Part shown: positions 9,833-44,797 of the stretch, in pieces | Position numbering within the stretch: position 1 is the first letter of the stretch | How the letters are laid out: each line of letters begins with the position of its first letter | Source: Desulfosudaceae bacterium | Lineage (GTDB): Bacteria; Desulfobacterota; Desulfobacteria; Desulfobacterales; Desulfosudaceae | Reading direction: 5' to 3' | Length of the DNA: 64,000 bases | Assembly (NCBI GenBank): GCA_963674745.2 | Contig: CAXXDV010000003.1 | Coordinates: 1,920,001-1,984,000 of the forward strand | Program-made: the position numbers and the translations under genes | The notes under the pieces: model-generated | Databases searched by the model: none | Told to the model about the DNA's origin: nothing | Seen by the model: only the letters and a program-made list of their open reading frames with translations

Positions 9833-10954
9833 TCAGCCTGCCTGCCGTTCAGCGACCGCTTTTACGATCACACCAAGGTTCACCCCTGACCGCTGTATAA
9901 CCCGGCGGCATCGGGCAAACAACAACCCTGAAGCATTGGCGTTTCTCCCGGCCGATTCCCGCCCCAGCACGATCATTGCCGGGAGCAAGGTTTCCTTTAA
10001 CAACATCAGCTTGTCATGTCGTGACGCAAGGCAATTCATCCACAATATATTGCCCCAGTCTCCGATCGAACGGCCCCGTGATCTGAAGCCCAGCAAAGCC
10101 TGTTCAATACCGGAAATACTCATCTCGGAATGACAAAGCCGTGAACCTCCCGGAGGCTGAAAACAGAACATCCTGCCGAGCAGAAAAAAAGCATAGGACA
10201 ATGGTTTCTCCTGTTGAAACAAAAGAGCCCTGTCGTCCAGGCTTTTCCAGAATCCCGCGTCCCTGCCCCTGACAATCAAAAAAAAATCGACCAGCCAGAC
10301 CAGTTTTGAAAATGAATGCTTGATCATATGATGGGCCATATAGATTAAATGGGTAAATTCGTCGGGCACCCGCACAAGAGAAAACTCTTCACCCCAGGGG
10401 AGGGATTGGTTAAATATCTGTCGCTGATGCACAGGAAACAAGGCCTGCCTGCTTTTAATGCGCGATGTATGCATCAAACTGGTGTGCACATCGATCCGGA
10501 CATCATCTTTGTGAAACATCTGGGGGAACCGATGATCTGTTTTATAGCCGTTTTGTTTTAAAACTTCTTTCAGGCCCGACAAATCTTCTTTGCGGACCAG
10601 GAGATCAATGTCCTCCATGGGTCGTAGACCCGGGTCTGCATAAACGGTATCAAGTAAAGCCGCGCCTTTGAGCAGCACCACAGATATGTTTTCTGAGGCA
10701 AGAAGAGACTCAAGGATTTTAAGGTGCTCCCTTCTGAGGGTGTTCATCGCAAGCGTGGAATAATAGGCCTGTTCCAGAAAATGAAAGACGTCAGCAGGAA
10801 TGCCGTCCTGATTCGCCATCAAGCGATAGGCCAACCCCTGGAGCTGTTGTTGCGATAAAAACCGGGTAAACCCGTCCCAGGACTCGGGTGGCCTTGCGGG
10901 TTGATGCAGTAAAAGAGACAGGAGATAGTTCTGAAAACGTAAATCAGACATCAT
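9833..10954 (-). CDS. Nucleotidyltransferase family protein (NTP_transf_5-like, RiPP-associated type)
   Basis: VVLLKG...Y..PGLRPMEDIDLLV, IDVH, H..KH.F..LVWLVD; 4-bp overlap with the upstream peptidase. Confidence 0.85.
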   Translation of the reverse strand: MMSDLRFQNYLLSLLLHQPARPPESWDGFTRFLSQQQLQGLAYRLMANQDGIPADVFHFLEQAYYSTLAMNTLRREHLKILESLLASENISVVLLKGAALLDTVYADPGLRPMEDIDLLVRKEDLSGLKEVLKQNGYKTDHRFPQMFHKDDVRIDVHTSLMHTSRIKSRQALFPVHQRQIFNQSLPWGEEFSLVRVPDEFTHLIYMAHHMIKHSFSKLVWLVDFFLIVRGRDAGFWKSLDDRALLFQQEKPLSYAFFLLGRMFCFQPPGGSRLCHSEMSISGIEQALLGFRSRGRSIGDWGNILWMNCLASRHDKLMLLKETLLPAMIVLGRESAGRNANASGLLFARCRRVIQRSGVNLGVIVKAVAERQAG

Positions 10955-11475
10955 CTTACCCGTAATCTTTTCAAGACAGCCAGATATTTGACGATCAACG
11001 ATTTGAAGCGATAGTATTGTGCCCGGAAACGGTTCAAGATAATCGACCTGAGGCTAAGCATGTCGATCGAAATTAACCCTTTATGTCCCGGGCGTTCGAC
11101 AGAAACAACTCTGCCAAGACATTGTGCGGCGTCCAGGGGTAAATCCATCATATCCAGGGCATCACCTTTTGTATGCAGGATATTGTTATCACCGCCGGTG
11201 CCGTTGTTTTGAATTCTCAAAAGCCGGTGCAGCGCCATGGTTCCATTATCACGTGTACAAAGAACAACGTCCCCGGTTTTAAGCATTGCCGGGGGCACTT
11301 TCCGGATGGTGGCGATATCCCCGTCTTTAAGAGCGGGTGTCATACTGTCTCCGGTAACACGGACACGCAGATCTTTTCCGCTGGCCAGCAACGCTGATGC
11401 GAGTTCGCTCGACAGCGGATGGGTCTCGCGCGGATTGCCGGTTTCACAGGCATGATATTCATGTATTGAATTCAT
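10951..11475 (-). CDS. S24/S26 family peptidase (signal-peptidase-like, no TM anchor)
   Basis: VTGDSMTPALKDGD (catalytic Ser), LHRL, TKGDA..D; start placed at ATG 11475. Confidence 0.82.
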   Translation of the reverse strand: MNSIHEYHACETGNPRETHPLSSELASALLASGKDLRVRVTGDSMTPALKDGDIATIRKVPPAMLKTGDVVLCTRDNGTMALHRLLRIQNNGTGGDNNILHTKGDALDMMDLPLDAAQCLGRVVSVERPGHKGLISIDMLSLRSIILNRFRAQYYRFKSLIVKYLAVLKRLRVR

Positions 11476-12370
11476 TGGCGTTCTCTTGAAAAAAATCCGA
11501 GATCGAAGCATCGGCTCGAAACGTCAACTCATAAGCGGGAATCCGGCTTATCAAGTGGTCACAAAAGGCCATCATGGCGGCTGTTTTTTCTTTATCATAC
11601 CAGGGGATGGATAATACCGGCAACAATCTGCCAATCGTGTCCGAAGCGGAAAGTTCGGCCATCCTGTTCTCCGAGCCCTTGGACAAAAAAGCCATTTGCT
11701 TGAGTTCAACGCCCAGATTGACCGCGTGCCCCCCTTCCCCGGGCCACGGCGTCCCGTGCATTTGAAAGGTATGACCGGTTCTGCGGATGACGATGCGGTC
11801 ATCGCTTAACACCGCTCCAGAATTCAGGCCTGACAGATATCCGGCCAGGGTTGTCTTGCCGGCACCTGATTTTCCCGGGAAAACCCATCCCGAATTGTTT
11901 TGCGCCCATCCTGCCGCATGAACGATGACACCTTCATGATGGGCCAGAAAGTTCATCAGCATGATCTGATCCAGCGGATAGGTGACAGGATTAAGCGCCA
12001 GTGACCGCGTCTGTGTATTAATAATGTCACTGCTGCAGAACACAATGACCCGTCCGGCCTTTAAACAAAGCTGCGCCGTCCAGACCGGTTTTGCGAAAGG
12101 CGGGTATTGATCCGTAACATATAATTCGTCTTGACGAGCATAAACAGACCACGAATCCTGGCTGTCAAAAATTCGCTTGCAGCCCGTTAATTCCGGAGCA
12201 GGGTCTGCGGTCAAAATCACTTCGAGGTGTTCCTGATGGGAGCAGACGCGGTCATTATCGTCTAAGACGAACTGCCGGGAAATGTTTTGCGCCCATGCTT
12301 CTGCCGGCAACTTTAAATGACCGGTATCAACCTTCAGGGCCAGGCCTGCTATTGAAAGGATAAGTTTCAA
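11459..12370 (-). CDS. HPr kinase-like P-loop protein
   Basis: VHAAG, FPGKSGAGKTT, LSDDR, GTPWPG motifs of HprK-related kinases. Confidence 0.8.
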   Translation of the reverse strand: MKLILSIAGLALKVDTGHLKLPAEAWAQNISRQFVLDDNDRVCSHQEHLEVILTADPAPELTGCKRIFDSQDSWSVYARQDELYVTDQYPPFAKPVWTAQLCLKAGRVIVFCSSDIINTQTRSLALNPVTYPLDQIMLMNFLAHHEGVIVHAAGWAQNNSGWVFPGKSGAGKTTLAGYLSGLNSGAVLSDDRIVIRRTGHTFQMHGTPWPGEGGHAVNLGVELKQMAFLSKGSENRMAELSASDTIGRLLPVLSIPWYDKEKTAAMMAFCDHLISRIPAYELTFRADASISDFFQENANEFNT

Positions 12371-12384
12371 AGGTTTACTGGCAC

Positions 12385-12576
12385 TTATGATCCGAGGCTG
12401 AAGCAGGCGGAAGGCGCCACGCAGCTGAAGGGCGGTATGGCTGGCTGGCCTTTGCCCCCGGAGCTACTGACGTTTGTTTTGCACCCCACGGCCAGCACCT
12501 CATCGGCGACCAGCTCTATTATCTTGACGTCCGGTTTCTCATAGGGGCGCTTTTTCGGTTCGCTCTTTTCGGACAT
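12385..12576 (-). CDS. Putative RiPP precursor peptide, 63 aa
   Basis: RBS-like GAGGG; leader KRPYEKPDVKIIEL (YxxP RRE-binding type); core with 3 Cys, many Ser and a C-terminal Ser; sits between the rSAM and the kinase. Confidence 0.8.
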   Translation of the reverse strand: MSEKSEPKKRPYEKPDVKIIELVADEVLAVGCKTNVSSSGGKGQPAIPPFSCVAPSACFSLGS

Positions 12577-13678
12577 GTTCGCCCTCGACTGTCATTTGAT
12601 TAACATTTAATTTTTTTCCCATGCAACGGCCGATGCTGCAGAGATATTCTGAAATCTGTGTTTCAACACCCGTGTCCAGCCGGAAAAAAGCGGGACAGTA
12701 ACCGCAATAAGCACGATTTTCACAGGTTTTACATTCAAACTCAAGGGGAATCTTCTTTTTCCTGATGGCCGGAATCCGGTTTTGCCAACCGTCCATAAAA
12801 GATCCCTTCAAAAGATCATACCAGATATCGCTGACCATCAGGCAGGGTTTCAACCGCCCACCCGGGTCTATATGAAAATTAGTAGTGCCCGCACCGCAGT
12901 CATACAGCACATCGGAAAACGGCACCTGCGCCATCCGTTCCGCAAGCGCCCTCCATTCACCTACCATTCTTGAATCAGTCAGATTTTTTTCCGCCACCTC
13001 ATCCGGCGAAACCCGGTATGCAGCTGGAACGCGACTGCCGTCCAGGCAGGGAAATATCATACCGTCAAAACGGAACTTGATGCTGAAATTTTCAGCTACC
13101 TCTCGGATCCCATCAAATTCATGCCGGTTGATTGACATTAAAACAGTCTTCATCCGTGTCTGGACACCGGCATCAACCAATAATCGAATGCCATTCAGCG
13201 CTTTTTCCATCATGCCTGAACGGCGGGTTATCGCTTCATAGGTCGCTTCCGTTGACCCGTAGAAGGAGACCTCCACACAATTGGGCGGATATTCTTGAAA
13301 CAGCTCAATGATACGTTCGTTTATCAGGGAACCGTTGGTAAAAACGGTTACCACCAGTCCTTTTTTTTTCGCGTGGGCATAAAGGTCCGGGAAGTCTTTT
13401 CGCAGCAGGGGTTCCCCGCCGGTAAACAAAAGATATAAACAACCGGCTTCAGTAATTTCATCAATAATCGTAATCCATTGTTCCGTAGTCAGCTCTTGGG
13501 AAGTCTTATCAGGATTGTTTTTATCCGAACCCAGATAGCAATGAACGCAATCAAAGTTACATCGCCGGGTGATTTCAATATCGCCGCTGATCGGGACTCT
13601 GGCCCTCATGACCCGGCGCGCAAAAGCCATAAATGCGGATTCCGCTTCTATGTTCAATCGTTTCGGACAATCCATCAC
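12539..13678 (-). CDS. Radical SAM/SPASM domain protein (peptide maturase-like)
   Basis: CNFDCVHC (CxxxCxxC), TGGEPLL, FTNG; SPASM Cys set CGAG..IDP.G..KPC...CKTC....CGYCP...C. Confidence 0.93.
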   Translation of the reverse strand: MMDCPKRLNIEAESAFMAFARRVMRARVPISGDIEITRRCNFDCVHCYLGSDKNNPDKTSQELTTEQWITIIDEITEAGCLYLLFTGGEPLLRKDFPDLYAHAKKKGLVVTVFTNGSLINERIIELFQEYPPNCVEVSFYGSTEATYEAITRRSGMMEKALNGIRLLVDAGVQTRMKTVLMSINRHEFDGIREVAENFSIKFRFDGMIFPCLDGSRVPAAYRVSPDEVAEKNLTDSRMVGEWRALAERMAQVPFSDVLYDCGAGTTNFHIDPGGRLKPCLMVSDIWYDLLKGSFMDGWQNRIPAIRKKKIPLEFECKTCENRAYCGYCPAFFRLDTGVETQISEYLCSIGRCMGKKLNVNQMTVEGEHVRKERTEKAPL

Positions 13679-13992
13679 CGCACTTCACATATTAAATCCA
13701 GGTCAATCAACCGGTCGATGAGCTCACAGACATCGTTTCTGGCTACGGACCCGTTAACGGTAAAATTCTCTTCGACCCCATGACAGATTTGGTTTACCCG
13801 GTTTTCCCCGGATAATTGCTCCCACACAAATTCGGCAACCGGATTAAGCATGAATATCCGCTGCATATCAGCCACTTTTCCCCTGATGGGCACCAGGATT
13901 GCCTGACCGGCAATATTGCGGGAAACGATATCGGACTTTTTCTGATAAACACGATCCAGGATTGTTTCCGGGGCAGAACTGTTCATGGGCAT
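13675..13992 (-). CDS. PqqD family protein / RiPP recognition element
   Basis: IVSRNIAGQAILVP...FMLNPVAEFVWEQL...A.NDV.ELI..L....LI; RBS AGAAGGA upstream of ATG 13992 or 13986. The track's longer start overlaps the giant gene. Confidence 0.88.
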   Translation of the reverse strand: MPMNSSAPETILDRVYQKKSDIVSRNIAGQAILVPIRGKVADMQRIFMLNPVAEFVWEQLSGENRVNQICHGVEENFTVNGSVARNDVCELIDRLIDLDLICEVR

Positions 13993-14002: not shown

Positions 14003-17000
14003 TTACCGGATCTGCAGGGCCGGGTCCCCCAGGAGGCTGTATATATCCTGCATGTAAGGATATTCCAGATTGCCCAGGGCCTGGTAACGTTCAAGGGCGC
14101 GGCTCACCGCCTGGCCGATAGTACCCGCCTTCTCATCAAATAGCACCCAGAACAATTCCTTGTTCATTCTGACAGCCTCACTGTTTATTGACAACCCGGT
14201 CGGTGACCAGGCCGCGATCATCCCCCCGCCGGATCTCAAGACCAGTTCTTCGCTGAGGGTATCCATCCAGGGATACGAAAAATCTCCCGCCAGGCAGGTC
14301 AAGGCAACGTATATCGGAAACTGACCGTTCGTCAACAGTCCCTGATGAGTGGTATTAAAAAAGTTGGACATGACGTCATAGCCGCCATGACCGATATAAT
14401 TGACCAGCCATTCACCACTGTCGACTGCGGCCACAAAGTCGTTGCGCATCTCACCGGCCGTTCGCCCCGGATAATAAAGCGTATCCACCGTAAAGCCGTT
14501 TACCAGGGCCGACACATCGTTACTGTCGGCGGGGAAATTGTTGGATATGGTGCTGTCCGGCTTATCGGCCACCATCAACACGTTGTCACGGGCGCCCGGA
14601 ACACCGGCCTCATAAGCGATAATCTTGGACACATAATCCGACATTTCGTTGATGGTTTTGACCGGAATACGACCCAGGACCACATTTGAAAGCCGGTCTT
14701 CGTCCACATCCCCGTAAATAACATCCGAGGCGTAAATACCGTAAGGCGTAAAGGTCATGACAACCGGCATCAGGTTCCGGACGCTGACGGAAAAGGTCTC
14801 GAGATTATTCTTATAGTCAAACGTACCGTCCCCGACCAGTAACACATACTGCGGAGACATGGTCCATTGGGTAAGCGCGAAATCGATAAAATCCCGGATC
14901 GCGTAAGGATCGTAAACCCCGAATGAGAACTCGTCAAGAACATCCGACAACCGGACCACCATGGGCGTCATACCCCGGCCTGACCGGTAATCAGACAGCA
15001 ACTGGGCGCCGGCGGTCAGCTCATCGGCCGCAATGATCAGATAATCGGCACGATTGGACGGATCTTTCAGGTTGGACGGTTCATCGGCCAGCAGTTCCGG
15101 TTCTTTGACGGCCGAGGGCAATAAGGCCAGATACGGCGTATCGGTGTTTTCCGGGGCCACCGTAATCCGGTTGTTGGTCGTGTCCAGGGCCGCGTTCTGA
15201 ACCCGCCTGGGTGTTTTGGTATCCGACAGATCGAACAAAGAGATATCCGGCCCGGCAAATCCCGTCACGGTAATCACGTCGTTCCCACCGGCAGTAAAAT
15301 GGAGCATATCACCAGCAGCCACATAAGACTTCTGGTAAGTCAGATCAAAGGAATCCACACCAAAGGCGTCATCGGTTGTCAGGCCGACGACCTTGACGGT
15401 ATTGGCACCCTCAACCAGGTACTGCTGATTGAACGAGAAAGTCTTTGACACCGGCTCAAAACCGCTCCAGTTCACTTCACCCAGGTTCAGCTCACTGCCC
15501 GTGCCCTGGTTCAAAATAACATCAGCCCGGTGGAGGTTGTCGCTGAAGCCATGGAAATGAACCGTCAATTCCGCCGTGAACGTATCACCGGGCGCTACGG
15601 CCGGAACATCCAGTGGGAAGGGATCAAAGCCATAAGCCGGCCCGAACTGGGGATTGCCAAGGGTAAAAATGTCCCAGAACCAGAAATCCGCTACGTCAAT
15701 GGGCACATCCGTCTTGAAAAATGTTTCTTTTTCGAAATGAACCGTGGCGGAAAAGGACTTATCTTCGCCGGTTAAGGCCGGAACATTGTCGGCCGATGTT
15801 GCCGTAAAGCCGGCCAGGGCATTCCGGATATAAGCCAGTTCAGCCATGTCCACTTTGCCGTTACCGTTGACATCGGCATCCGAAGCCGCGTAATCCGGTC
15901 GCAGATCACCGGCCGGCCGGCCGGTCATTACGTCCAGCCCGATGGCTAGATCGGCGGCGTCGATCAGGCCGTCATTGTTCAGGTCTCCCATGCCGTTGTC
16001 CGGCATCAGTTTCAGCCAGTAAACATTATGGTCGGTATAAATCGAAGAGAACGCCTCACCGTAAAAATAAATCGCCGAATAATCCGCTTCCGGATAATAA
16101 GCCACCGGTAAACCCCGGTTGGACAAACGGACTTTTCCTGCCGCAAGGGTGTCGATCACGTCAACTTCATTCACGTTCAGGGCCAGGGCCAGCTTGTCCA
16201 CGGCAACCCGGTACAGGCCGGAGGCTTCTACCCGGATCTTCACATCCCGGACGCCGGTCAACGGGCCGGGGCCCACGGAACGTTCCAGCCCGCGGTCAAA
16301 CGATTGGGTCAAGGCGGTGTTGACCGCCATTTTCGACGGCCTTACAACCGCCTCAAAGGATTTTAAACTCCCGTCCGTTTCGGTGGTCGACGAAACCAGC
16401 CGGCGATCCGTCCTTGAGAACCCCTTCCGGAAAAGGTCAGCTTCATGACGGGTATCCATGGCACCATCCACCATATCGGCCGTCACCGTGTAAGGGCCGT
16501 AACGACGCGTCTGTCCCGAGGCTTCCAGCTCAATAAGGTGATAGGTATAGGTTTCACCCGGTTTCGCCGTTGCATCGAGGCACCGGTAAACACCGCCATG
16601 CGGGAAAACCAGCGCCGGTATGGGACGATTCGTCACCCGCATCATACTTCCTTCATCACGACGCGCTACGGTAAACCCGAGGGTGCCCACCTGGGACACG
16701 GTCTCCCATTCCAGGATGACATGGCCGTTCTGAACAAATGCTTTAAAGTAAGATATTACAGCCAGTGTCGGCTTGATTTTAAAAAACCCGAAATCGATGT
16801 CATCGACATCTTCATCGGATGTGAGCGACTCATCTTCCTCACCATCAAAAGGTTCGGTGGTCCCTTCGGTTTTTTCATAAACGATTTCGTATCCATTCAG
16901 AACGCTGTTGATATCGGTAACCCGGACGGTATAATCAACCCCCGGCGCGGGCGTGGCCAACCCGGCAAATGCGTAATCTCCGGATGCATCTGTGGTCGCC

Positions 17001-20000
17001 GTCGCAATCACCACACCGTTCCTGATCAGATCTACGGTTACATTGGCCAGGCGGGGTTCTGTGCCGTCAATGATGCCGTCAACATCATCGTCTTCCCAGA
17101 GGGTGCCGGACAGGCTGCCCGGATTCAGGGTATCGTAACCGAAATCCGCTTCAAAATTGCTGACACCACCGGAAATCTGTACCCGCCGCTGGTGACCGGC
17201 AGCCGATCCATCATTATCCGTCGAGGTCAGATAAAAATCACTCAAGGCGACCTGGGTGTCGTCGATACTGACCCAGTACCAGCCGTCTGAAAGCCCGGAA
17301 AACAGATATTTGCCATTGGCATCCGTGACCAGTATTCCCAGTGAAGCACCGTCATCACCGCCCGGCTCGAAGTTACCGTCATTGTCGACATCGCGATACA
17401 GGGTAACCGTCACGTTTCTGATGCCCGGTTCATCGCCGTCCTGAACACCGTTACCAACCGTTCCGCCTCCCGCGCCATTGTCGTTAAATACCGTATCGCC
17501 AAGGCTGCGGGACAAATTATAACCAAAATGCGGAACGGAGGTGTAATCCAGGTCAACGGTCAACGTGCCGGGCATCTGGAACGACCCGGACAGGGCCGAC
17601 GGGGTGGTGCCGTAATAGCTGTTTAAAACACCCGCCTGATCCGTCACCTCCCAGGTGTAACGGACACCGGCCGGAACACCGGAAAACGTAAAATCGCCAT
17701 TGCTGTCCGTGGTTGTGGTGGCAATGAGATTAAGGCTGGCATCCAGCAGGTCCACGGTCACGCCGGCAAGGCCCCCTTCGGTTCCATCCTGAATACCATT
17801 ATCACCCGTACCTGTCGGCAAGCCGTTGTCCAGCCATACACGGTCTGAAATATCGTATGTCGTACCCGGCGTATTCTGGACGAAACCAAAATCGGCATTA
17901 AGATAGCTGTCGCCGGCATCCACATCCTGATAACTGTATATGCCGGTAATCGGAATGGTGAGATCGTATGCCGGAAGATCCGACTGGTCCACCCATACAA
18001 TATAATCCTCCGTACCGGATGCCGCGACACCTGCAAACAGATAGCGGCCGGCGGCATCCGTATCGGTTTCAATGAAGGGCTCACCTCCGTCGATGATGCC
18101 GTTACCGTTGGTGTCGGTGTAAAGCCTGACCGTAACGCCGGGCAGTCCCGGCTCTCCCGGATCACGGATACCGTCTCTGTCGGCATCACTCCAGACCAGG
18201 TCGCCGAAAAAGGCCGTGCCCGGGTCAGGCTGATACCCCAGATCGGCGTCAAGATATTCGGTCAGGGTTAAGTCGGGTATGGTGTAGGCGATATCCACAT
18301 CATCGATGTTAAAATACTCATCGGCGGCGTCCAAGCCGCTGGTGGCACGAAACCTGACGGTGGTCGTGTCAGAGGCCAGCCCCAGCGCGACCAGGTCATA
18401 TGACCGGCTGCCGCTTCCGGCCGTTCCGTCAAAAGTTTCCAGTACGGTAAAATTCGAACCGTCCGGACTGGCTTCCACCACGATCGTATCGCCGGACTCC
18501 AGATTGGCGGCTTCATAGCCGAAGCTCAGCGTGGCGCTGTTGGCGTGTTCAATATCCGCGACACGTTTGATCAGGGAACCGGCAGCGCTGTTGCTGCCGC
18601 TATACGCGATATTGACGTTATCAAGACGTACCCGGTCATTGTCATTATTCCAGGTGGAGCCGGAACGGAACCGCAGGGTAATGGTGGGGTCGGCCGGATC
18701 CCAGGCAATCGGAAAGGAATAACTGCCGTCATCGTTGTTATCCAGAACCACCAGGGGGGTATAAGAAGCACCGCCGTCAGCACTGTATTCGGCGATCACG
18801 GTTTCCCCGGCTTCAATTCCGGCGTCATCATAATCAAAGCTGACGGTCACCGAGTCCGCTCCGGTCACGGTCTGGCTTCTCAAAATGGCATCATCGACAT
18901 CGCACCGGCGTAGTTGCAGCCGATTATTATTATTCTGGAGTTGAATGGTCCCGGTGCTGTAATCCGGCGTTCCGGGGTCGTTTTCTTCGGTCCAGGGGCC
19001 GTTGTTCCAGCCGGTTCCGCCATTGTAGGTGTTGTCCGTGGTAAAGGGATCATTGGCATTTCCGCTGACAATACCCGGCCGGAACTGCAGGTCTCCGCCC
19101 GTAATCCAGATGGTCCCGGTGCCGGCGCCGGCACCGGAGGGGTCTGTTTCCACCCAGTCCCCGTTCCAGTTGGCGGTACCGTCGTCATTGTCGTAAGCGG
19201 CACTTGAAAATTCGTCCCGGTAATTTCCGGAACTGGCGGCAATGGAAAGATCAAAGGAATCGGTCCGGTTGTCGGTCCGCCCGTCGGTGGTCTGGACCAG
19301 GCCGGGCGGAAGGCCATCGGTTATCTCGACATAATAGCCTGTGTCTATTTCCACATCGGAAAACTGGTAGTAGCCGATACTGTTGGTCAGCATGGTCTGC
19401 AAAGGTGTACCGTACTGATCTTTCAAGGTCACTTTGACATTGGGGATGCCGGATTCGCCCAGATCCAGAATACCGTTTCCGTTGGCGTCAAGCCATACCC
19501 GGTCCCCCACTACGGCGCTGCTCTGGTCCGGATTGACCACCGGATCGGTGACCGAAGCGCTGACGGGGGTGAATATTTCACTGCTGGTGACCGAAGCCGT
19601 ATTGGTGATCTCCGTAATGCCCGTTGCCAGTGGATCATCTATCGTCGCCTGGAACGTAAGGATAAGGGACTGGCCGGCAGCCAGATCATAATTGTCGCCG
19701 GACAGGACAAAGCCGGGCGGATCATGCCCCGCAACGGTGGTTATCCCGCCACTGTAGGCAATATTTACATTATCGATATCACAGTATTCACCGTCGGCAT
19801 CAATCCCGCCGGAAACACGAAACTGCACCGTGGTGGCGCTTCCGATATACGAACTGATATCATAAGAAAGATCCGGTTGAGCGGTATTGTCTCCGTCAAA
19901 CGTCTGCAGGGGGGTAAACGTGGCCCCGCCGTCTGAATTGATCTCGGCCACGATCGTATCGCCGGACTCCAGATTCGCGGCGCTGTAATCAAAACTCAGG

Positions 20001-22912
20001 GTGGCGCTGGTGGCACCGGTAAGGTCGACGCTGCGGTTGATAAGGGAACCGGAAGCGCTGGCCGTTGCGGAAAAAGTGATGTCCACATTATCAAGGTATA
20101 CGTAGTCATTGTCCCAGCTCCAGGTAGAACCTGAATTGGAACGGAACCGAAGGGTAATCGTGTTATTAACCGGATTCCAGACGATCGGAAAGGAATAACT
20201 TCCGGTCATGCCATCATCCAGCGTGACCAGTGACGTGTATCCACCTCCGGTACTGTATTCGGCAATTACCGTTTCACCGGCTTCAACACCAGCATCCGTG
20301 TAATCAAAACTGACGGTAACAAGCGTCGCACCGGCCACATTCGCCGTCCTCAGAATGGCATCATCGGGTTCGCACTGCCTTAATTCAAGCCGATTATTTC
20401 CATTACTGAGCCGAATGGTTCCCGTACTGTAATCCGGCGTGCCGGCGTCGTTTTCTTCTGTCCAGGCCCCGGTCCAGCTTCCGGTTCCGCCATTATAAGT
20501 ATCATCTGTGGTGAAAGGATCATTCGCACTTCCGCCGGCAGTGGTTCCCGGCCGGAATTGCAGCGCCCCCCCCGTAACCCAGACGGCGCCGCTGCCGGGA
20601 CCGGCACCGAATGAGTCAGTTTCTGTCCAATCACCGGACCAGTTGGCCGTGCCGTCGTCATTGTCGTAAGCGGCGCTTGAAAACTCGTCCCGTACGTTGG
20701 CAGACACCGGCCCCTCTACCTCGGCACTTGCCGCCACATAGGTGACGCCCGAAGGCATGGCATCATAAACCGAGATATTATTTAACGTGGTGGTGCCTGA
20801 ATTGGTTACCGTAACCGTGTACGTGACGGTGTCTCCCGGATAAGCAGCGGTGGCAATGTCCGAGGTTTTGGTGACATCCATATCTTCGTTGCCGTATGTG
20901 ACAAAGGCAAAATCCGACGTGGTAAATGTCTGGGGCACTCCCTCCACTGTCCGGGTGCCGATGGCGGTCACATCATTCTTGGAAAGATCGCCCACGGCAA
21001 AATTCTGGGTCGTCCGCCCGTCAAAAGAGATATAGAGTTTCTGGTTTGGGGCCATGGTGCCCAGAATAGCGCTTCCCCATGTCAGGGTTCGATTGTCAGG
21101 CCCGGAAGGTGTCGGGTCAGTTATGCCCGGGCTGCTGCCGTCCGGCAGGGTGATCTGAGTGGTGCCGCCCACATATTCCCAATCGGGCGGGAGTAAATCG
21201 ATCACCTCGATATCGTCGACCGGGTATTTTCCGGTTTCCACCTCCAGGGTAAATGTTGTCTGCTGGGGAGAAGCGGTGGGGATTATACCGGGATCCACGC
21301 TTTTGTTCACCCTCAGGACCAGATCGATAAAATCACTGCCGGGAATTGTCGTATATCCGACGTCAATGGCCGGCGTGGCAGCCGGGGCCCCGGGATTCTG
21401 ACCGTAGGCGGCCACATAGGGGCCGGTGGCGTAAATATTGGCTTCCGTCATGTCACCGTCATTGGGATCAAATACATACTGGGAATCCAGGCGATCAAGA
21501 TCGTAAAAAACATCAAAAGGATTTGCGTCCGACGGATTATAATCGATAAATATCCGGGTATTATCCTGAGCGGGAGAGAGATATACACCGGAATTGTCGG
21601 CGTCCCCACCTGTCCCCACCGGGTATGATCCCGGCGCCCATCCCATGAAATGTTCATTCTCCAGCAAAAACGCCGGCACCAGGCTGTATCCCCAGTCATG
21701 GGTCCGGCCGGCCCCGAAATCAGCCGCGTCTCCGTCAGAGGTATCAATAGTAGAGACGCCCCAGAACACATCACTGGCTGACAGGTAAACACCAGATGTC
21801 AGGGGGACATACCCCCCCGTGCCCTGAAAATAGGAACGGGTGGTTTTGGGATTGATGTTAAACCATCCGGACCCGCCGCCATTGGTCTGGTAGTCAATCC
21901 GTAAGACCGTATCATTGGGATTGTAGAGATAGATATCCGTATCCCCGTTATTGGCTGAAGTACCGCTGTTCACCGGCGCGTAATACTCATTGTCCCAGAA
22001 CCCCCGGGGAAAGGCGGACAATCCCCTGACTTCATAATTAGACCCCTGGTCCCCCACGACATATTGTACCTGGATAGTCGCGGAAGCCTGGATTCTTGTG
22101 CCGGCAATCAGCAGATTATCTGCCGTACTGCCATTGACCGCAGCGCCGTTAATGGCCTGGTCGCCCATGGTGACCCTGTCTAACAAAAGCACATCCCCCT
22201 GGTTAAGCGTATGGGTTGTGCCGTCAAGCGTGCCGTCGCGGTCCCAGTCAAGCTGGTCATAGACGCCGTCCTTGTCCAGGTCCACCTGGATTACTGTTCC
22301 ATCAGCGGTTGCCTGGATCAGGTTATAGACCCGGTCAAAATCCCAGTAGTTCTTGGCCGCGTCTCTGGCCAGATCTTCGCCGAAAGGCATGATATAAGTG
22401 GTGAGCTGCGGTCGAACCGGATAGACCTCCCAGGCAACGGCCAGGAGGGTCCCGGCCGCTTCGGTCCAGGAAGCACGGGCCACGGTGACGGCCCCTCCGG
22501 CCACGTATATGTGATCCCTGCCGTCATAATACGTGGCGGTACCGCGCGGGTTGTTGGGGACATCGGTCCCCTCGAAAATCTCACTGTCCCCGCGGGGAAC
22601 AATCAAGCGGATTTCATCAGCGGTGGCGGCAGGATCGGCCTTATCAAAATCGTATCCGTCTTCCCAGTGATCGTAATACACGGTGGTATTTGGCGACCAG
22701 GCTGTCACCGAAATAATGGAATGCAGAGGGCCTGAAACATCATCATATGCAATGTCATCCAATACAAATGACATGAGATTCTCATCCCCGGGAATAAAAT
22801 ATTCGGAATATCCCGCTGAGGCGGCCCCGAATGCCTGACCGGCTGTAAAAACAATACAGAAGAAAACCATCAGAAAACGGATTAACGCTTGCGGCTTGTT
22901 ATGACAATTCAT
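14003..22912 (-). CDS. Giant secreted multidomain protein: DUF11 and SdrD-B-like repeats, duplicated beta-rich module, dockerin-like domain, C-terminal C25 (gingipain-family) cysteine peptidase
   Basis: Signal peptide; DUF11-like VTKT..PGDTVTYTVTVTN; five GDxVWxD..G..D..E.G...V.V.L-type repeats; GDLNNDGLID/ADVNGNGKVD pair; C25 motifs ADYLII, YVLLVGD, GRIPV, NYIGHG, TCLAGDF, LLGDPAL. Confidence 0.88.
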   Translation of the reverse strand: MNCHNKPQALIRFLMVFFCIVFTAGQAFGAASAGYSEYFIPGDENLMSFVLDDIAYDDVSGPLHSIISVTAWSPNTTVYYDHWEDGYDFDKADPAATADEIRLIVPRGDSEIFEGTDVPNNPRGTATYYDGRDHIYVAGGAVTVARASWTEAAGTLLAVAWEVYPVRPQLTTYIMPFGEDLARDAAKNYWDFDRVYNLIQATADGTVIQVDLDKDGVYDQLDWDRDGTLDGTTHTLNQGDVLLLDRVTMGDQAINGAAVNGSTADNLLIAGTRIQASATIQVQYVVGDQGSNYEVRGLSAFPRGFWDNEYYAPVNSGTSANNGDTDIYLYNPNDTVLRIDYQTNGGGSGWFNINPKTTRSYFQGTGGYVPLTSGVYLSASDVFWGVSTIDTSDGDAADFGAGRTHDWGYSLVPAFLLENEHFMGWAPGSYPVGTGGDADNSGVYLSPAQDNTRIFIDYNPSDANPFDVFYDLDRLDSQYVFDPNDGDMTEANIYATGPYVAAYGQNPGAPAATPAIDVGYTTIPGSDFIDLVLRVNKSVDPGIIPTASPQQTTFTLEVETGKYPVDDIEVIDLLPPDWEYVGGTTQITLPDGSSPGITDPTPSGPDNRTLTWGSAILGTMAPNQKLYISFDGRTTQNFAVGDLSKNDVTAIGTRTVEGVPQTFTTSDFAFVTYGNEDMDVTKTSDIATAAYPGDTVTYTVTVTNSGTTTLNNISVYDAMPSGVTYVAASAEVEGPVSANVRDEFSSAAYDNDDGTANWSGDWTETDSFGAGPGSGAVWVTGGALQFRPGTTAGGSANDPFTTDDTYNGGTGSWTGAWTEENDAGTPDYSTGTIRLSNGNNRLELRQCEPDDAILRTANVAGATLVTVSFDYTDAGVEAGETVIAEYSTGGGYTSLVTLDDGMTGSYSFPIVWNPVNNTITLRFRSNSGSTWSWDNDYVYLDNVDITFSATASASGSLINRSVDLTGATSATLSFDYSAANLESGDTIVAEINSDGGATFTPLQTFDGDNTAQPDLSYDISSYIGSATTVQFRVSGGIDADGEYCDIDNVNIAYSGGITTVAGHDPPGFVLSGDNYDLAAGQSLILTFQATIDDPLATGITEITNTASVTSSEIFTPVSASVTDPVVNPDQSSAVVGDRVWLDANGNGILDLGESGIPNVKVTLKDQYGTPLQTMLTNSIGYYQFSDVEIDTGYYVEITDGLPPGLVQTTDGRTDNRTDSFDLSIAASSGNYRDEFSSAAYDNDDGTANWNGDWVETDPSGAGAGTGTIWITGGDLQFRPGIVSGNANDPFTTDNTYNGGTGWNNGPWTEENDPGTPDYSTGTIQLQNNNNRLQLRRCDVDDAILRSQTVTGADSVTVSFDYDDAGIEAGETVIAEYSADGGASYTPLVVLDNNDDGSYSFPIAWDPADPTITLRFRSGSTWNNDNDRVRLDNVNIAYSGSNSAAGSLIKRVADIEHANSATLSFGYEAANLESGDTIVVEASPDGSNFTVLETFDGTAGSGSRSYDLVALGLASDTTTVRFRATSGLDAADEYFNIDDVDIAYTIPDLTLTEYLDADLGYQPDPGTAFFGDLVWSDADRDGIRDPGEPGLPGVTVRLYTDTNGNGIIDGGEPFIETDTDAAGRYLFAGVAASGTEDYIVWVDQSDLPAYDLTIPITGIYSYQDVDAGDSYLNADFGFVQNTPGTTYDISDRVWLDNGLPTGTGDNGIQDGTEGGLAGVTVDLLDASLNLIATTTTDSNGDFTFSGVPAGVRYTWEVTDQAGVLNSYYGTTPSALSGSFQMPGTLTVDLDYTSVPHFGYNLSRSLGDTVFNDNGAGGGTVGNGVQDGDEPGIRNVTVTLYRDVDNDGNFEPGGDDGASLGILVTDANGKYLFSGLSDGWYWVSIDDTQVALSDFYLTSTDNDGSAAGHQRRVQISGGVSNFEADFGYDTLNPGSLSGTLWEDDDVDGIIDGTEPRLANVTVDLIRNGVVIATATTDASGDYAFAGLATPAPGVDYTVRVTDINSVLNGYEIVYEKTEGTTEPFDGEEDESLTSDEDVDDIDFGFFKIKPTLAVISYFKAFVQNGHVILEWETVSQVGTLGFTVARRDEGSMMRVTNRPIPALVFPHGGVYRCLDATAKPGETYTYHLIELEASGQTRRYGPYTVTADMVDGAMDTRHEADLFRKGFSRTDRRLVSSTTETDGSLKSFEAVVRPSKMAVNTALTQSFDRGLERSVGPGPLTGVRDVKIRVEASGLYRVAVDKLALALNVNEVDVIDTLAAGKVRLSNRGLPVAYYPEADYSAIYFYGEAFSSIYTDHNVYWLKLMPDNGMGDLNNDGLIDAADLAIGLDVMTGRPAGDLRPDYAASDADVNGNGKVDMAELAYIRNALAGFTATSADNVPALTGEDKSFSATVHFEKETFFKTDVPIDVADFWFWDIFTLGNPQFGPAYGFDPFPLDVPAVAPGDTFTAELTVHFHGFSDNLHRADVILNQGTGSELNLGEVNWSGFEPVSKTFSFNQQYLVEGANTVKVVGLTTDDAFGVDSFDLTYQKSYVAAGDMLHFTAGGNDVITVTGFAGPDISLFDLSDTKTPRRVQNAALDTTNNRITVAPENTDTPYLALLPSAVKEPELLADEPSNLKDPSNRADYLIIAADELTAGAQLLSDYRSGRGMTPMVVRLSDVLDEFSFGVYDPYAIRDFIDFALTQWTMSPQYVLLVGDGTFDYKNNLETFSVSVRNLMPVVMTFTPYGIYASDVIYGDVDEDRLSNVVLGRIPVKTINEMSDYVSKIIAYEAGVPGARDNVLMVADKPDSTISNNFPADSNDVSALVNGFTVDTLYYPGRTAGEMRNDFVAAVDSGEWLVNYIGHGGYDVMSNFFNTTHQGLLTNGQFPIYVALTCLAGDFSYPWMDTLSEELVLRSGGGMIAAWSPTGLSINSEAVRMNKELFWVLFDEKAGTIGQAVSRALERYQALGNLEYPYMQDIYSLLGDPALQIR
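18300..20695 (-). repeat. Intragenic duplication of a module of roughly 300 aa within the giant protein
   Basis: RDEFSSAAYDNDDGTANW...ANDPFTTD.TYNGGTG...AANLESGDTIV occurs twice; DNA near-identical at an offset of about 1470 bp (e.g. 18478 vs 19948). Boundaries approximate. Confidence 0.85.
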
Positions 22913-23079: not shown

Positions 23080-24846
23080 TTAAGGAACACATGTGCCTAT
23101 AAAACACCCGGAAGAACCGCCACCGCCACCACTGCTGCTGTTGCTGCTACTTCCGGTTTCAGGCGCGACAATCCCACCCGGATCGATAATCACCCCGTTG
23201 GCCACACCGTCCAGGTCACCCGGGCCGCCATCCGTCAAAGTCAGGGTCAGAGAGCGCATACCTTCAGCAAACACGGCATATCCGCTGAAATCGTAAAAGC
23301 TCTGATCAACCGTGGTCTTCCACCATTGCGATCCGGACGTCATTTTTTCGGAAAAACCGATGGTGATGGTTACGGTAGCACCGGAAACGGCGGTCTTCAA
23401 CCGGAACGACAGCAGGCCATGGGTGAAATTGACCGGCCAGAAACCGGCATTTTTAAAATCTTCGGCCGGCGCCCATCTGAAACGCTCAATATTTTCCACG
23501 CCTTCATCTGCAGCCAGACTGAAGCGCAGACCGTTGGCACGGGACTGCAGGACCAAGCCCTCATCACCGGCATCGATTAAATTCGTCTGAATATTCCCGT
23601 TCACGACATCCTGATCATCCGGGACACCGTTTCCGTCATCATCCCTTACCGGGTCGGCACCAGTGGTAAACTCGCCCGCAGTTTCCCACGGTCCGGTGTC
23701 ATAACGAATCCGCCAGTAGTAGGTCGTATAAGCATCCAGTATGAGATCCGGAAGTTGAATTTCCGTCACATCATAGGGGCCGGTATATTCAAACAGCAGA
23801 TTGGTGAAGGTGCTGTCGGTACTGATCTGCCAGACGATGACCGCGTCCGGTCCGACCGTGTCGGGGCCGGGGAACGGCTCTATCTCCATCACCGGATTCA
23901 GGGAAACATCAATGGCACCGTTGGCCGGGCCGATCAGGACATCATGGCAGTCGGGAATACCGTCTTCATCACTGTCAGCATCGGCTACCCCGCAGCCACA
24001 GGCGCCCGGTTCGGTTTTTAACGGGTCATCGGGACATTCGTCCTCATTGTCCGGCACACCGTCATTATCCGAATCCACAACCGGATTAACATCGTTATCG
24101 TCGCCACCCGGCTCCATACCCGGATCGTCGTCAGGCGGTGTCACGCCGCCACTGTTACCCAGGACATTAAAAACAAACAAAGGCTGCTCATCAAACCCGT
24201 CCTTGACAACAGCGGCTTCCATTCCATCCGTATCGTCACGACCGGCCCCACTGTCCGGTCCAAACAGGTACAAAAGGGGCACGTTTTCCGTCAGATCTTT
24301 ATCTGCCGGGTTGAAAACCCCGTTATTGTTATTGTCAGTCCCCCAACCGGCCGGGCCGTTACAAAGTCGGCTCTGAAAAAGGCGCATGCTGTGGATGCCG
24401 GCCGGGGCGGCGCTTTTAACCCGAAAAACAACGGTAAACAACGTTAACGGTTCCGAACCCGCATCTAAAGCCGAGGGTTGTTTGAAAATGCCGGTTAAAA
24501 AAACCGTTCCCGGATTCTCTGTGTTGCTTGACCAGAAAGAGCCCATACCGGGTTCGCCACTCATATCATCCCGGTGAATTTCAAAAACCGATGTGGTCAC
24601 CGCCTCGGATTCCAATGAAAGCACATTTCCCGGGTACGTCAGAGAAAAGGCAGCACCTTCGAACGAGGAGATATCCGACGCAACGATATTGACGGTCAAC
24701 AGCGTAGCCCCTCGAAGATTTCTAGGCGTACCATCCAGACCAATCGTTACGGCAAATGAATTTGCTGCCGGAAAAAACAGGCAAACAAAAGCCAGAAAAA
24801 CAGACAGGAGGATATTCTGTCCTATTTTATTGTTCTTGAGTCTCAT
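23080..24846 (-). CDS. Secreted surface protein: cohesin-like domain, TSP3-like Asp-rich repeats, FN3-like domain, choice-of-anchor-U-like domain, Gly/Ser-GCFI tail
   Basis: Signal peptide; TVNIVASDISSFEGAAFSLTYP..VL (cohesin-like); DSDNDGVPDNEDECPDDP; GLLSFRL...LTLTDGGPGDLDGVANGVIIDPGG; ends SSSGGGGGSSGCFIGTCVP. Confidence 0.8.
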   Translation of the reverse strand: MRLKNNKIGQNILLSVFLAFVCLFFPAANSFAVTIGLDGTPRNLRGATLLTVNIVASDISSFEGAAFSLTYPGNVLSLESEAVTTSVFEIHRDDMSGEPGMGSFWSSNTENPGTVFLTGIFKQPSALDAGSEPLTLFTVVFRVKSAAPAGIHSMRLFQSRLCNGPAGWGTDNNNNGVFNPADKDLTENVPLLYLFGPDSGAGRDDTDGMEAAVVKDGFDEQPLFVFNVLGNSGGVTPPDDDPGMEPGGDDNDVNPVVDSDNDGVPDNEDECPDDPLKTEPGACGCGVADADSDEDGIPDCHDVLIGPANGAIDVSLNPVMEIEPFPGPDTVGPDAVIVWQISTDSTFTNLLFEYTGPYDVTEIQLPDLILDAYTTYYWRIRYDTGPWETAGEFTTGADPVRDDDGNGVPDDQDVVNGNIQTNLIDAGDEGLVLQSRANGLRFSLAADEGVENIERFRWAPAEDFKNAGFWPVNFTHGLLSFRLKTAVSGATVTITIGFSEKMTSGSQWWKTTVDQSFYDFSGYAVFAEGMRSLTLTLTDGGPGDLDGVANGVIIDPGGIVAPETGSSSNSSSGGGGGSSGCFIGTCVP

Positions 24847-25034
24847 ATCCTGATTCACCAGCCATTTTGTCAACCTTGCAGAGGGAAAAGGTCGCCTCTA
24901 ACTGCCTAAAGCTTTAACTAACCGATATAATACATATTAAAATCAGACCGTGGTATTAATAGCAGAAAATACATGAATAAGTGAAAAATCGATCACGGCT
25001 GAAGATATGTATATTCAACACTAAAAGTTAAAAA

Positions 25035-25341: not shown

Positions 25342-26700
25342 TTAAGAATGCGTTTCCGATGGGCGGTATTCAAGCATGGGTAATACACAAACAATACCGG
25401 TCAAAAACCAGAATGGCTCCATGATACGGACAATAATAAACGTGTTGGCGGCCAGGGCGTGAAACAGCAGTCCGACAAAGCCGGCAATATATCCCACACA
25501 TAAACCACGATAAAAAGGTTCCGCCGTATTCCGCAGGCTGAAAAAAGCCATTCTGAATACAGCGTAAATTAAAAACATAAACGTTATCAGCCCCAGAACA
25601 CCTGCTTCAACCAGTACGCGCGGGTACTGGGAATCAATAAAACGATGACCGGTAATACCGTATCCCAGTAAAGGACTTCTGGTCCAGTCCATTACCGCTT
25701 CCTTTAGGCCGAAAAGCCTGGCTGAGGTTGAAGTATCAAGCCGGAAACCGCCGAAACTAACCTGAGCCTGTACCTGGTGTACAGGCTGGGTGAAAGTGTA
25801 TAAAATCCGATCTTTTACCACCCTGGGAAGCAAAAGTGGACTAACAATTACAAAAAGGCTCAACAGCGCGATCAAAAGCCCTCTTTTTCGGGAAAAAAGG
25901 CTGATAAACAGTAGCATGGGCAACATCGCCAGATAGGATGCTCGGGACTGGGTGAATAGAAACGGCGGAATCATGACCGACAGGAGAACGAATGTCAGTT
26001 CTTTAATCCTGGTTTTTTCACTATACAGCAAAATACCCAGGGTAATGGCCGTCATGAATACCAGATATCCGCCGAATGTATTGGGCTCTCCTGTCTCTCC
26101 TTCAAAAGGGGCGCTGACCCGTCCGCCGCCGGGTATCTGCATAACACCGATGATGGACACAATAAAACAAGTCAGGAAAAGGCAAAAAACAAAACGATTT
26201 ATCTGGTCCTTACCCCGGATATGATTAACCGTCATAAAAAAAACTATGAAATACTCGAAATACTTTAGAACAAAAAACATACCGGTCTTGGGATCTACCC
26301 GCCCGGCCATGATCCCCCATACGGTTGCGATCACACAGGCCAGTAAATACAGGAATATGGGTTTATTCAACGGGGTTTTAAGAAAAAGCCCCAAATCCTT
26401 GTAAATCGCATTGCGGGCGAACCAGCCGGCACCGATGATGATCAGCAGAAAATCATCAAACCGTAGCGTAATGCCCCTGCCCAGAGAACCACCGGCAGTA
26501 GTGCCGACCACAAATTCAGGCGACAGCAGCATTGAAAAAATGAGCAGATATAGGCCAAATTCGAGATTGACAAAAGAAAAGATAAAAACAAGCAGGCCCA
26601 GGATGCCGATGAAAACATGCCAGGGCGGAAACTGGGAGACAGCAAATCCGGCGGTCAACGCCAGCAGAAAAAAACCTATAACAGAAAATAATTGTCTCAC
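25342..26700 (-). CDS. O-antigen ligase / Wzy-like polymerase family membrane protein
   Basis: Polytopic; R.SAPF..EPNTFGGYL, TQSRASY, SAR, PLLGYG, LVEAGVLG. Confidence 0.85.
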   Translation of the reverse strand: MRQLFSVIGFFLLALTAGFAVSQFPPWHVFIGILGLLVFIFSFVNLEFGLYLLIFSMLLSPEFVVGTTAGGSLGRGITLRFDDFLLIIIGAGWFARNAIYKDLGLFLKTPLNKPIFLYLLACVIATVWGIMAGRVDPKTGMFFVLKYFEYFIVFFMTVNHIRGKDQINRFVFCLFLTCFIVSIIGVMQIPGGGRVSAPFEGETGEPNTFGGYLVFMTAITLGILLYSEKTRIKELTFVLLSVMIPPFLFTQSRASYLAMLPMLLFISLFSRKRGLLIALLSLFVIVSPLLLPRVVKDRILYTFTQPVHQVQAQVSFGGFRLDTSTSARLFGLKEAVMDWTRSPLLGYGITGHRFIDSQYPRVLVEAGVLGLITFMFLIYAVFRMAFFSLRNTAEPFYRGLCVGYIAGFVGLLFHALAANTFIIVRIMEPFWFLTGIVCVLPMLEYRPSETHS

Positions 26701-28973: not shown

Positions 28974-29026
28974 GTTTACCTGTTTATAGTTCTGCGTTAC
29001 CTGCTTACCGGCAACTGTTTCAGAGG

Positions 29027-31177: not shown

Positions 31178-31191
31178 TGAGTAAACACTCC

Positions 31192-31989: not shown

Positions 31990-32044
31990 TCATTCCTCCG
32001 GACAACGCCTCTGTCAGTTCTGTCAAGCGGCTGTTTGTGCCTGG

Positions 32045-33100: not shown

Positions 33101-33168
33101 CGCACACCAAAATTATTCAGAAAGGATTAACAATAAACTTTGTTTAGACTGCCTTTTTAATTTTTTTT

Positions 33169-33196
33169 ATTATATCAAATTCTAGAAAAAAATCAA
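33169..33196 (-). promoter_or_regulatory. Predicted sigma-70 promoter for the HD-GYP to wzy block
   Basis: Minus strand TTGATT-N16-TATAAT in an AT-rich intergenic gap. Confidence 0.5.
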
Positions 33197-33218
33197 CACT
33201 TTTTAGAGGTTATAATCT

Positions 33219-35422: not shown

Positions 35423-35441
35423 ACGAACAACGCCTCCCGGT

Positions 35442-36068: not shown

Positions 36069-36071
36069 GGA

Positions 36072-39158: not shown

Positions 39159-39238
39159 ATCTTTCCCTTTTATGTTAACACTGAAACGTCTGCCGCCATT
39201 ATACTTTTCATTCGTTTTATTGACATTTTGTCAACTCA

Positions 39239-44796: not shown

Positions 44797-44797
44797 T

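Follow-up and report, generated by a model that had tools for sequence, protein, structure and literature searches.

A radical SAM-containing RiPP cassette beside a giant C25 protein and a polysaccharide locus in a Desulfosudaceae bacterium

Which peptide is made, and for what purpose, by a cassette of peptide-modifying genes that lies close to a cell-surface polysaccharide locus? The question was raised by a stretch of 64,000 nucleotides (nt) from the genome of a Desulfosudaceae bacterium (GenBank assembly GCA_963674745.2, contig CAXXDV010000003.1, positions 1,920,001–1,984,000), hereafter called the window. A sequence-only reading had described six genes at 9833–13992 as a cassette for a ribosomally made peptide with post-translational modifications (RiPP). 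They would encode a RiPP recognition element (RRE), a radical S-adenosylmethionine (rSAM) enzyme with a SPASM domain, a precursor, an HPr-kinase-like protein, an S26 peptidase and a nucleotidyltransferase (NTase). All six were present on the minus strand, overlapping or nearly abutting. We conclude that the cassette is a real and intact member of a large, uncharacterised RiPP family related to the kinase–NTase systems of the linear polyphosphorylated peptides (LPPs) and of paeninodin. In the best reading, the product is a thioether-bridged peptide that is phosphorylated at its last serine and coupled to a glycan. We give even chances to a RiPP pathway that resembles that of LPPs, includes a radical SAM step in addition and serves the polysaccharide of the cell surface.

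Genes and catalytic residues of the cassette

The cassette consisted of the following genes (lengths in amino acids, aa).

13675..13992, minus strand: stand-alone RRE of the PqqD family, 105 aa (PF05402, E 6e-13)
12539..13678, minus strand: rSAM/SPASM enzyme, 379 aa, without a fused RRE (PF04055, E 2.5e-26)
12385..12576, minus strand: precursor peptide, 63 aa (no Pfam or NCBIfam family)
11459..12370, minus strand: HprK-like peptide kinase, 303 aa, TTG start (weak TIGR04355 and TIGR04352 matches)
10951..11511, minus strand: archaeal/SipW-type signal-peptidase-I-like (S26) peptidase (PF00717, E 5.6e-8; TIGR02228)
9833..10954, minus strand: NTP_transf_5 NTase, 373 aa (PF14907, E 2.4e-40)

From the coordinates, the junctions between the RRE and the NTase gene were overlaps of 4 and 38 nt, a 14-nt gap and overlaps of 17 and 4 nt; the S26 gene probably starts at the ATG at 11475 rather than at 11511. 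Pfam named four of the six genes (PqqD, Radical_SAM, Peptidase_S24 and NTP_transf_5), and none of the six proteins reached an NCBIfam cut-off. An RRE was present in 46 of the 54 homologous loci of at least 12 kb. Among the sequences of solved structures it had no clear relative, the best relevant match being 9x90 (E 0.97).

The rSAM enzyme carries a CxxxCxxC motif (Cys 40, 44 and 47) and seven cysteines in the SPASM region (261, 279, 316, 319, 325, 328 and 347). All ten were invariant in 91 of 91 homologues, and a conserved eighth SPASM-region cysteine was absent. The Pfam SPASM model gave no match at E 0.01; the SPASM assignment was made because the seven C-terminal cysteines are invariant and the fold matches anSME, SuiB, CteB and PqqE. 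The predicted structure (pLDDT 92.9) matched anSME, SuiB and CteB in Foldseek with TM-scores of 0.60–0.69, the highest being anSME (0.69), and it also matched PqqE and SkfB. Since the top fold matches were only 14–24% identical, the fold leaves the chemistry unsettled. The closest solved sequence was that of the sactipeptide maturase SkfB (E 1e-17).

The kinase had no Pfam match, and its HprK-related NCBIfam matches were weak (E 1e-7 and 4e-5). Its residues His151 and Lys172 (Walker A) were found in 51 of 51 homologues and Asp190 in 50 of 51; they match the His-Lys-Asp-Asp motif of PadeK and ThcoK (PMC9266682). The S26 peptidase scored 47.4 bits on TIGR02228 (cut-off 51.85; E 1.8e-12) and kept Ser56, His95 and Asp117 in 53 of 53 homologues, with a Ser–His spacing of 39 residues, as in LppS (S29/H68; PMC13381572). 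In the NTase, Gly97, Arg111, Asp115 and Asp117 were conserved in all 37 homologues and His209 and His213 in 36. Its structural model had a nucleotidyltransferase fold with weak matches (best: ANT(2'')-Ia, E 2.3e-3), and no relative was found among solved sequences. Judged from their sequences, the kinase, the peptidase, the rSAM enzyme and the NTase look active.

Precursor peptide and its family

The 63-aa precursor has a YxxP leader, an ExVL motif, Cys32-Lys33, Cys52, Cys58 and a C-terminal Gly-Ser. Among 301 genomes of the order, 52 had a homologue of the rSAM enzyme (E ≤ 1e-45), as had 27 of 401 genomes of the phylum. Sequence surrounding most of these matches, together with the window and other hits, gave 83 loci. 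A profile iterated from the window peptide retrieved 62 small open reading frames (ORFs) from them; one from a frameshifted assembly (L063) was dropped, and 61 were counted, the window peptide among them. These 61 peptides in 83 loci bore out the proposal of a conserved precursor beside homologous rSAM genes. Together with the retained catalytic residues of the kinase, peptidase and rSAM enzyme, they agree with the assignment as a RiPP cassette. A loose YxxP pattern alone matched more than 100 small ORFs in the genome; the family profile retrieved the window peptide (E 9e-19) and nothing else up to E 10. Because the profile match is unique in the genome and the homologues adjoin homologous rSAM genes, the 63-aa ORF is not a chance one.

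The precursors ended in serine (51 of 61) or threonine (6), that is, in either residue in 57 of 61. Exactly three core cysteines were found in 54, and a lysine directly followed the first cysteine in 57. The last cysteine usually stood 5–7 residues from the C-terminus, with a variable spacing of 4–11 residues between the second and third. Elsewhere the core was hypervariable between the fixed cysteines (mean column identity 33%), and no conserved aromatic residue was found in the cores of the 61 peptides. An alignment of 59 precursors matched 4,486 clusters (E ≤ 0.001) in a library of 1.84 billion representatives clustered at 50% identity. Of the best 150 matches, 143 were used (seven were too long or unparsed); 142 of these ended in Ser/Thr, and the positions flanking Cys2 and Cys3 were variable, counts that are biased since the profile holds these columns.

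Some loci carried many precursors (eight or more in L196). In a branch of the family with two rSAM enzymes, leaders were mostly of the WxxP rather than the YxxP type, some loci had up to about ten precursors, and rSAM–kinase fusions occurred (L103, L106, L110, L114, L187, L192, L196 and L223). In one locus (L098:2069-7714), small genes that by eye resemble toxin–antitoxin genes were inserted between cassette genes. The cassette or C25 genes of L063 (genome G200) and L245 (G224) were in many pieces, probably through assembly errors, and in G200 the RRE–rSAM pair was duplicated.

For the rSAM enzyme we lean towards the formation of one or more thioether bridges from the cysteines, with alpha-carbons as the likelier partners given the lack of a conserved acceptor residue. 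In the thioether-forming enzymes CteB and PapB, one auxiliary-cluster site is open. With seven invariant SPASM cysteines and no conserved eighth, one such site would likewise be open in the window enzyme. Within the same pathway, the enzyme might instead form no thioethers and act on Cys-Lys or on the C-terminus, by a new crosslink or by oxidative decarboxylation as in MftC and AhbD, with Cys2 and Cys3 engaged in a disulfide or a metal site. The lysine after Cys1 is, besides the terminal serine, the sole conserved non-cysteine residue of the core. The variable Cys2–Cys3 spacing also fits such a reaction, as do the AhbD, NirJ2 and MftC models, which ranked at or near the top, and the highest TM-score, that of anSME. 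However, the scores for these four enzymes are all at superfamily level, the closest solved sequence is SkfB, and thioethers are the usual product of seven-cysteine SPASM domains whose substrates are Cys-rich and RRE-bound. We therefore consider a non-thioether reaction rather unlikely.

Comparison with known RiPP systems

The LPPs of Bacillota (LppA/K/B/S/D/N; Popov et al. 2026, PMC13381572) are defined by an RRE, a kinase resembling HprK, an archaeal-type signal peptidase, an NTP transferase, an MsbA-like pump and a location in capsule loci, without a lasso cyclase. Polyphosphorylation at core Ser3 and RRE-dependent leader cleavage were found experimentally, and the final product and its role were left open by the authors (PMC13381572). 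The window shares with LPPs the discrete RRE, the YxxP leader, the HprK-like kinase, the SpI-type leader peptidase (Ser/His/Asp), the NTP transferase, the absence of a lasso cyclase and the setting in capsular polysaccharide loci (PMC13381572). In contrast to LPPs, which are linear and made without a cyclising enzyme (PMC13381572), it has an rSAM/SPASM gene between the RRE and the precursor, a three-cysteine core with a conserved terminal serine, and a giant C25 partner. An MsbA-like exporter was adjacent in none of the 20 C25-adjacent loci, the window included. Of the LPP consensus YxxPxVLxHQxIxFETxxS, with the phosphoserine at core position 3 (PMC13381572), the window peptide matches only YxxP and the glutamate 14 residues later. 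Because of the rSAM enzyme, the different precursor and the lack of an adjacent pump, we regard the cassette as LPP-like in its working and not as an LPP member.

The sequence-only reading had proposed lasso-type tailoring on a non-lasso scaffold as a novelty. The genes and catalytic residues agree with such tailoring; its novelty did not stand. Prior work on LPPs has already described lasso-type tailoring without a lasso, a leader protease resembling signal peptidase and the location in capsule loci (PMC13381572). New in comparison are the radical SAM enzyme, the three-cysteine core with its terminal serine, and the link with C25. The terms radical, rSAM, SPASM, C25 and gingipain do not occur in the main text of that paper, whose supplementary tables may list such clusters. 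In a literature search, with most subscription journals outside its coverage, neither the rSAM-containing family nor a link between C25 and RiPPs was the subject of any paper found.

Phosphorylated lasso peptides, namely paeninodin (PadeK), those of ThcoK and SyanK, and pseudomycoidin (PsmK), are modified on a conserved C-terminal serine by a His-Lys-Asp-Asp kinase and share the YxxP/WxxP leader and the RRE with the window (PMC9266682, PMC8498205). In pseudomycoidin, the nucleotidyltransferase PsmN is needed for the addition of a hexose to the phosphate (PMC9266682, PMC8498205). Lasso peptides also require a macrolactam cyclase and a B2 protease; the window locus has neither, and has the S26 and rSAM enzymes instead. 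The absence of a lasso cyclase had been claimed before and held for the surroundings of the locus: the only strong Asn_synthase match in the genome was a 631-aa protein, encoded on another contig and without RiPP genes nearby. Asn_synthase and Transglut_core3 matches were all unlinked to the cassette, lying on another contig or far away.

A likeness to SynChlorMet-type cassettes (ScmC/D/E/F, TIGR04248–04251) had been noted as well; we take these to share with the window a PqqD-like protein, SPASM enzymes and a kinase-like protein. The resemblance was upheld and membership was rejected, as the window rSAM enzyme scored 108 bits on ScmE and 76 bits on ScmF (cut-off 400). Among the cassette proteins there was no ScmC match at E 0.01, and the RRE gave 29.9 bits on ScmD (cut-off 100). 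The window also differs by having one rSAM enzyme instead of two, another precursor family and the C25 link. The two-rSAM relatives tested (L080 and L081) likewise failed the ScmE and ScmF models (69–87 bits).

Two further loci of the same genome were closer to SynChlorMet. A second cassette (L234, G000:C1:164661-172811) encoded an NTP_transf_5 protein, an RRE–rSAM protein, a double RRE, an rSAM enzyme, a kinase-like protein and an S26 peptidase. Its RRE–rSAM protein reached 387 bits on ScmE and its separate rSAM enzyme 367 on ScmF (cut-off 400), and the cassette served as a SynChlorMet-like internal comparison. It is followed by genes for an ABC exporter, a beta-barrel protein, Wza and Wzc, and thus lies within a polysaccharide export locus. 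A third locus (L235, G000:C1:283525-285961) held an RRE, a 94-aa peptide and an ScmC–S26 fusion (144.9 bits on ScmC, cut-off 125). The peptide combines a YxxP leader with about seven Gly-rich repeats, each led by a Cys, and is a candidate precursor for the SynChlorMet-like cassette; we know of no identified SynChlorMet precursor.

Sactipeptide and ranthipeptide systems (SkfB, CteB, PapB and StsB) share a SPASM-type enzyme, a Cys-containing core and an RRE with the window. The window rSAM enzyme differs in its 14–24% identity in structural matches, in scoring under all cut-offs and in its unfused RRE; the window adds a kinase, an S26 peptidase and an NTase, and has no conserved acceptor motif.

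The giant C25 protein

The boundaries at 9833 and 13992 proved too narrow. The six-gene view left out a giant C25 protein and a polysaccharide locus, the features that say most about function.

14003..22912, minus strand: giant secreted-type protein, 2,969 aa (PF01364, E 1.8e-70, at residues 2624–2967)

This protein has an N-terminus that by eye resembles a signal sequence, followed by DUF11, SdrD-B and dockerin-like repeats and a C-terminal C25 (gingipain/PorU-like) peptidase domain, whose catalytic His and Cys align with those of gingipain R. Its gene starts the operon and ends 10 nt upstream of the RRE start.

In the same 301 genomes of the order, a C25 domain (E ≤ 1e-15) was found in 38. 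The rSAM enzyme was carried by 26 of these 38 and by 26 of the 263 others, as well as by 21 of the 22 genomes with the closest C25; the genomes are kin, so these counts overstate independence and show linkage rather than a significance level. Cassette genes adjoined C25 in 27 of the 37 C25-positive genomes examined (G223 was left out), 20 being found from the rSAM side and seven more from the C25 side. In a FastTree phylogeny of the rSAM enzymes (141 rows), the window fell in a 31-row clade (support 97) in which C25 was adjacent in 24 rows; among the other seven, several were on short contigs or had C25 elsewhere in the genome. The position of C25 varied between upstream, divergent, inside (G030, G109 and L173) and downstream of the cassette. 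Judged by well-supported branches, the tree requires at least eight changes of the C25-adjacency label. Where cassettes were split (as in G147, G107, G243 and G224), four of the five genomes searched contained a precursor, each time in a C25 locus, and the same held for G243.

Could C25 be a bystander, an adhesin in a surface-gene island shared with the RiPP genes and without a role in the pathway? C25 had no cassette gene beside it in 10 of the 37 genomes, several with short contigs; second copies exist in G148 and G228, and whole branches of the family lack it. We nevertheless consider this reading improbable. C25 takes up its varied positions, including a fusion to S26, in separate rSAM branches, with the eight or more label changes on the tree, and it accompanies the precursor where the cassette is split. 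Functional coupling of the C25 protein to the cassette is likely: it would be a partner dedicated to the pathway outside the cell, where the exported glycopeptide would be bound, trimmed or ligated.

The C25 domain with its catalytic His and Cys is shared with PorU and the gingipains (peptidase family C25). PorU, the sortase of type IX secretion, has been proposed as an enzyme that cuts proteins and attaches them to an amine linked to a glycan (PMC4560394). The window protein differs in its score on NF033707 (191 bits, cut-off 420), its 2,200-residue adhesin-like N-terminal part and the RiPP cassette alongside. In the genome, no SprA_N or Por tail match to type IX secretion was found; controls likewise gave none. 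The invariant precursor lysine was considered as a C25 cleavage or ligation site, a proposal weakened by its retention in a branch without adjacent C25.

In a Myxococcales metagenome-assembled genome (L004:12143-15526), an S26 domain (residues 6–141) was fused via a signal-like segment to a C25 protein; this single example may reflect a lost stop codon. A search for other S26 fusions, weak in power, gave none from a single-protein query and just the L004 protein from an alignment query. In a branch with split cassettes (L072:15874-19389, L070 and L074), the rSAM, S26 and NTase genes were preceded by an MsbA-like exporter and followed by genes for an OmpA/TSP3 protein, a Rce1-like CAAX protease and a HEAT-repeat membrane protein.

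Polysaccharide locus and export

25342..53354, minus strand: Wzx/Wzy-type exopolysaccharide (EPS) locus, about 28 kb, co-oriented (Pfam for 25342–40225; 40222–53354 named from sequence only)

The locus encodes an O-antigen ligase/Wzy, Wzc, a Wza-like protein, an ExeA-like ATPase, an HD-GYP protein and a GT4/MraY-type initiator, further DegT, PIG-L, WbqC, glycosyltransferases, Gmd and a flippase-like protein. It lies upstream of the C25 gene and of a choice-of-anchor U gene; the cassette, the C25 gene and the polysaccharide genes all run in the same direction within a single stretch of 45 kb. Polysaccharide markers were the window's own proteins, with Wzy, Wzc, Wza, WbqC and Wzx as the strict set. 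Among the 54 homologous loci, strict markers occurred in 22, compared with 47 of 2,745 control windows of 20 kb (1.7%), taken from the window's own genome only; broad markers occurred in 33, compared with 9.2% of the controls. In six loci (L065, L066, L068, L098, L100 and L101), ExeA-like and HD-GYP genes stood just upstream of the RRE.

This context hints that the peptide is a cell-surface building block. The product might instead be a diffusible phospho(glyco)peptide acting as a signal or antagonist; in that case the polysaccharide locus would contribute no more than sugar nucleotides or a common regulation, and C25 would be a protease that trims or degrades. The core hypervariable between fixed cysteines and the many precursors of some loci (L196) fit such a role. 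So does the patchy distribution: a genome of the same genus, G129, has no rSAM, C25 or precursor match. LPP and pseudomycoidin products were also recovered free in heterologous hosts (PMC13381572, PMC9266682). However, the native LPP host gave no free product though the genes were expressed with an EPS gene (PMC13381572), and the C25 clade has no adjacent exporter. The lasso, LPP and window families and the SynChlorMet-like cassette of this genome, moreover, all keep kinase, NTase and polysaccharide locus together. On balance we regard a diffusible product as a minority possibility, at about one chance in four.

Proposed pathway

From the genes, the conserved residues and the linkage described above, we infer crosslinking, phosphorylation and cleavage of the window peptide, as had been suggested, and the other chemical steps of the pathway. 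By analogy with LppB and PbaB1, the RRE would likely bind the YxxP leader. The kinase would then very probably phosphorylate the C-terminal Ser63, possibly several times, as suggested by PadeK, ThcoK and PsmK and by the conserved terminal serine. After the rSAM step, the S26 enzyme would in all likelihood remove the leader in an RRE-dependent manner, as LppS does. Candidate cleavage sites are after Val27 (the LPP register, with a Tyr–Glu spacing of 14 in both) or at Gly31/Cys32. The NTase might activate or glycosylate the phosphoserine, which might leave the peptide in phosphodiester linkage with sugars of the polysaccharide encoded nearby; the precedent of PsmN and the genomic setting point this way, and we rate this step slightly below even. 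The C25 protein would act last, on or with the exported product.

Several observations weigh against this pathway. Deletion of lppN had no effect in the LPP host (PMC13381572). Ten of the 54 loci had neither polysaccharide markers nor C25, and an NTase was present in the retrieved DNA of only 33. Despite the presence of a kinase, a few precursors do not end in Ser/Thr (L062 and L172/L173). The top NCBIfam scores of the rSAM enzyme were those of the haem enzymes AhbD and NirJ2, far under cut-off, and its chemistry is therefore not fixed by homology. C25 is not universal: in a 42-row clade, mainly of two-rSAM cassettes, it was adjacent in none of the rows, and since the precursors of this clade keep Cys-Lys, the motif is independent of C25. 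The C25 genes without cassette neighbours and the kinship of the surveyed genomes also count here. An MsbA-like or ABC-2 exporter was found in 0 of the 20 C25-adjacent loci (window included) and in 30 of the 63 others, so the export route of the window cassette is one of the weakest links, along with the chemistry of the rSAM enzyme, the acceptor used by the NTase and the reaction of C25.

A more specific and doubtful extension is that the peptide is an encoded linker. Its phosphoserine would be attached to the exopolysaccharide via the NTase, thioethers would confer protease resistance, and C25 would be a transpeptidase linking the peptide's freed N-terminal amine to the adhesin or to other surface proteins. 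If true, this would be RiPP-based anchoring of proteins to a capsule, and it would account for the shared retention of kinase, NTase and capsule genes side by side in LPPs, paeninodin-type lassos and SynChlorMet-like cassettes.

With 4,486 precursor clusters, and with the rSAM enzyme in 52 of the order's 301 genomes, the family is very large. Its radical SAM reaction is uncharacterised and has a short substrate that can be expressed, and four of the six enzyme roles have published precedent. It also makes testable what kinase/nucleotidyltransferase RiPPs do in capsule loci, a question left unanswered by the LPP authors (PMC13381572). The genome is a good test case, because cassette, C25 and polysaccharide genes are co-oriented within 45 kb and a SynChlorMet-like sister cassette lies in a second polysaccharide locus.

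Neighbouring genes and further observations

23080..24873, minus strand: secreted choice-of-anchor U protein with a CFI-box-like tail (NF041766, 86.9 bits, cut-off 32; NF041763, 11.9 of 15.9 bits)

The choice-of-anchor U protein is a local neighbour and not a conserved cassette member. It is one of about 21 secreted-type proteins of the genome (with about 20 others, L138–L157) that end in a CFI-box-like tail (NF041763), in which a Gly/Ser linker and Cys-Phe-Ile/Leu are followed by a short segment lacking a membrane helix. One fragmented C25 protein itself ends in a CFI-type tail. The motif has already been named a putative sorting signal (NF041763). C25 and the peptide were considered as a sorting machine for these proteins and rejected as such, as the motif does not track with C25. 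The DNA pattern for Gly-Gly-x-Cys-Phe-Ile/Leu exceeded its control by at least 10 in 11 chosen genomes without C25 and rSAM, among them G129 (20 compared with 4 in the control). In 26 genomes with C25 and rSAM, the median excess was 4, and it was at most 2 in nine.

A promoter and terminator scan of the window gave counts inside the shuffled range. A perfect sigma-70-type promoter match (12 of 12; 9379–9407, plus strand) precedes the gene of a 105-aa secreted-type protein of no known family (9465–9782, plus strand), which converges on the NTase gene. At 5543–7120 on the plus strand, a ParA/MinD-type ATPase is joined to a DnaJ-like domain and ends in an HTH_25 domain.

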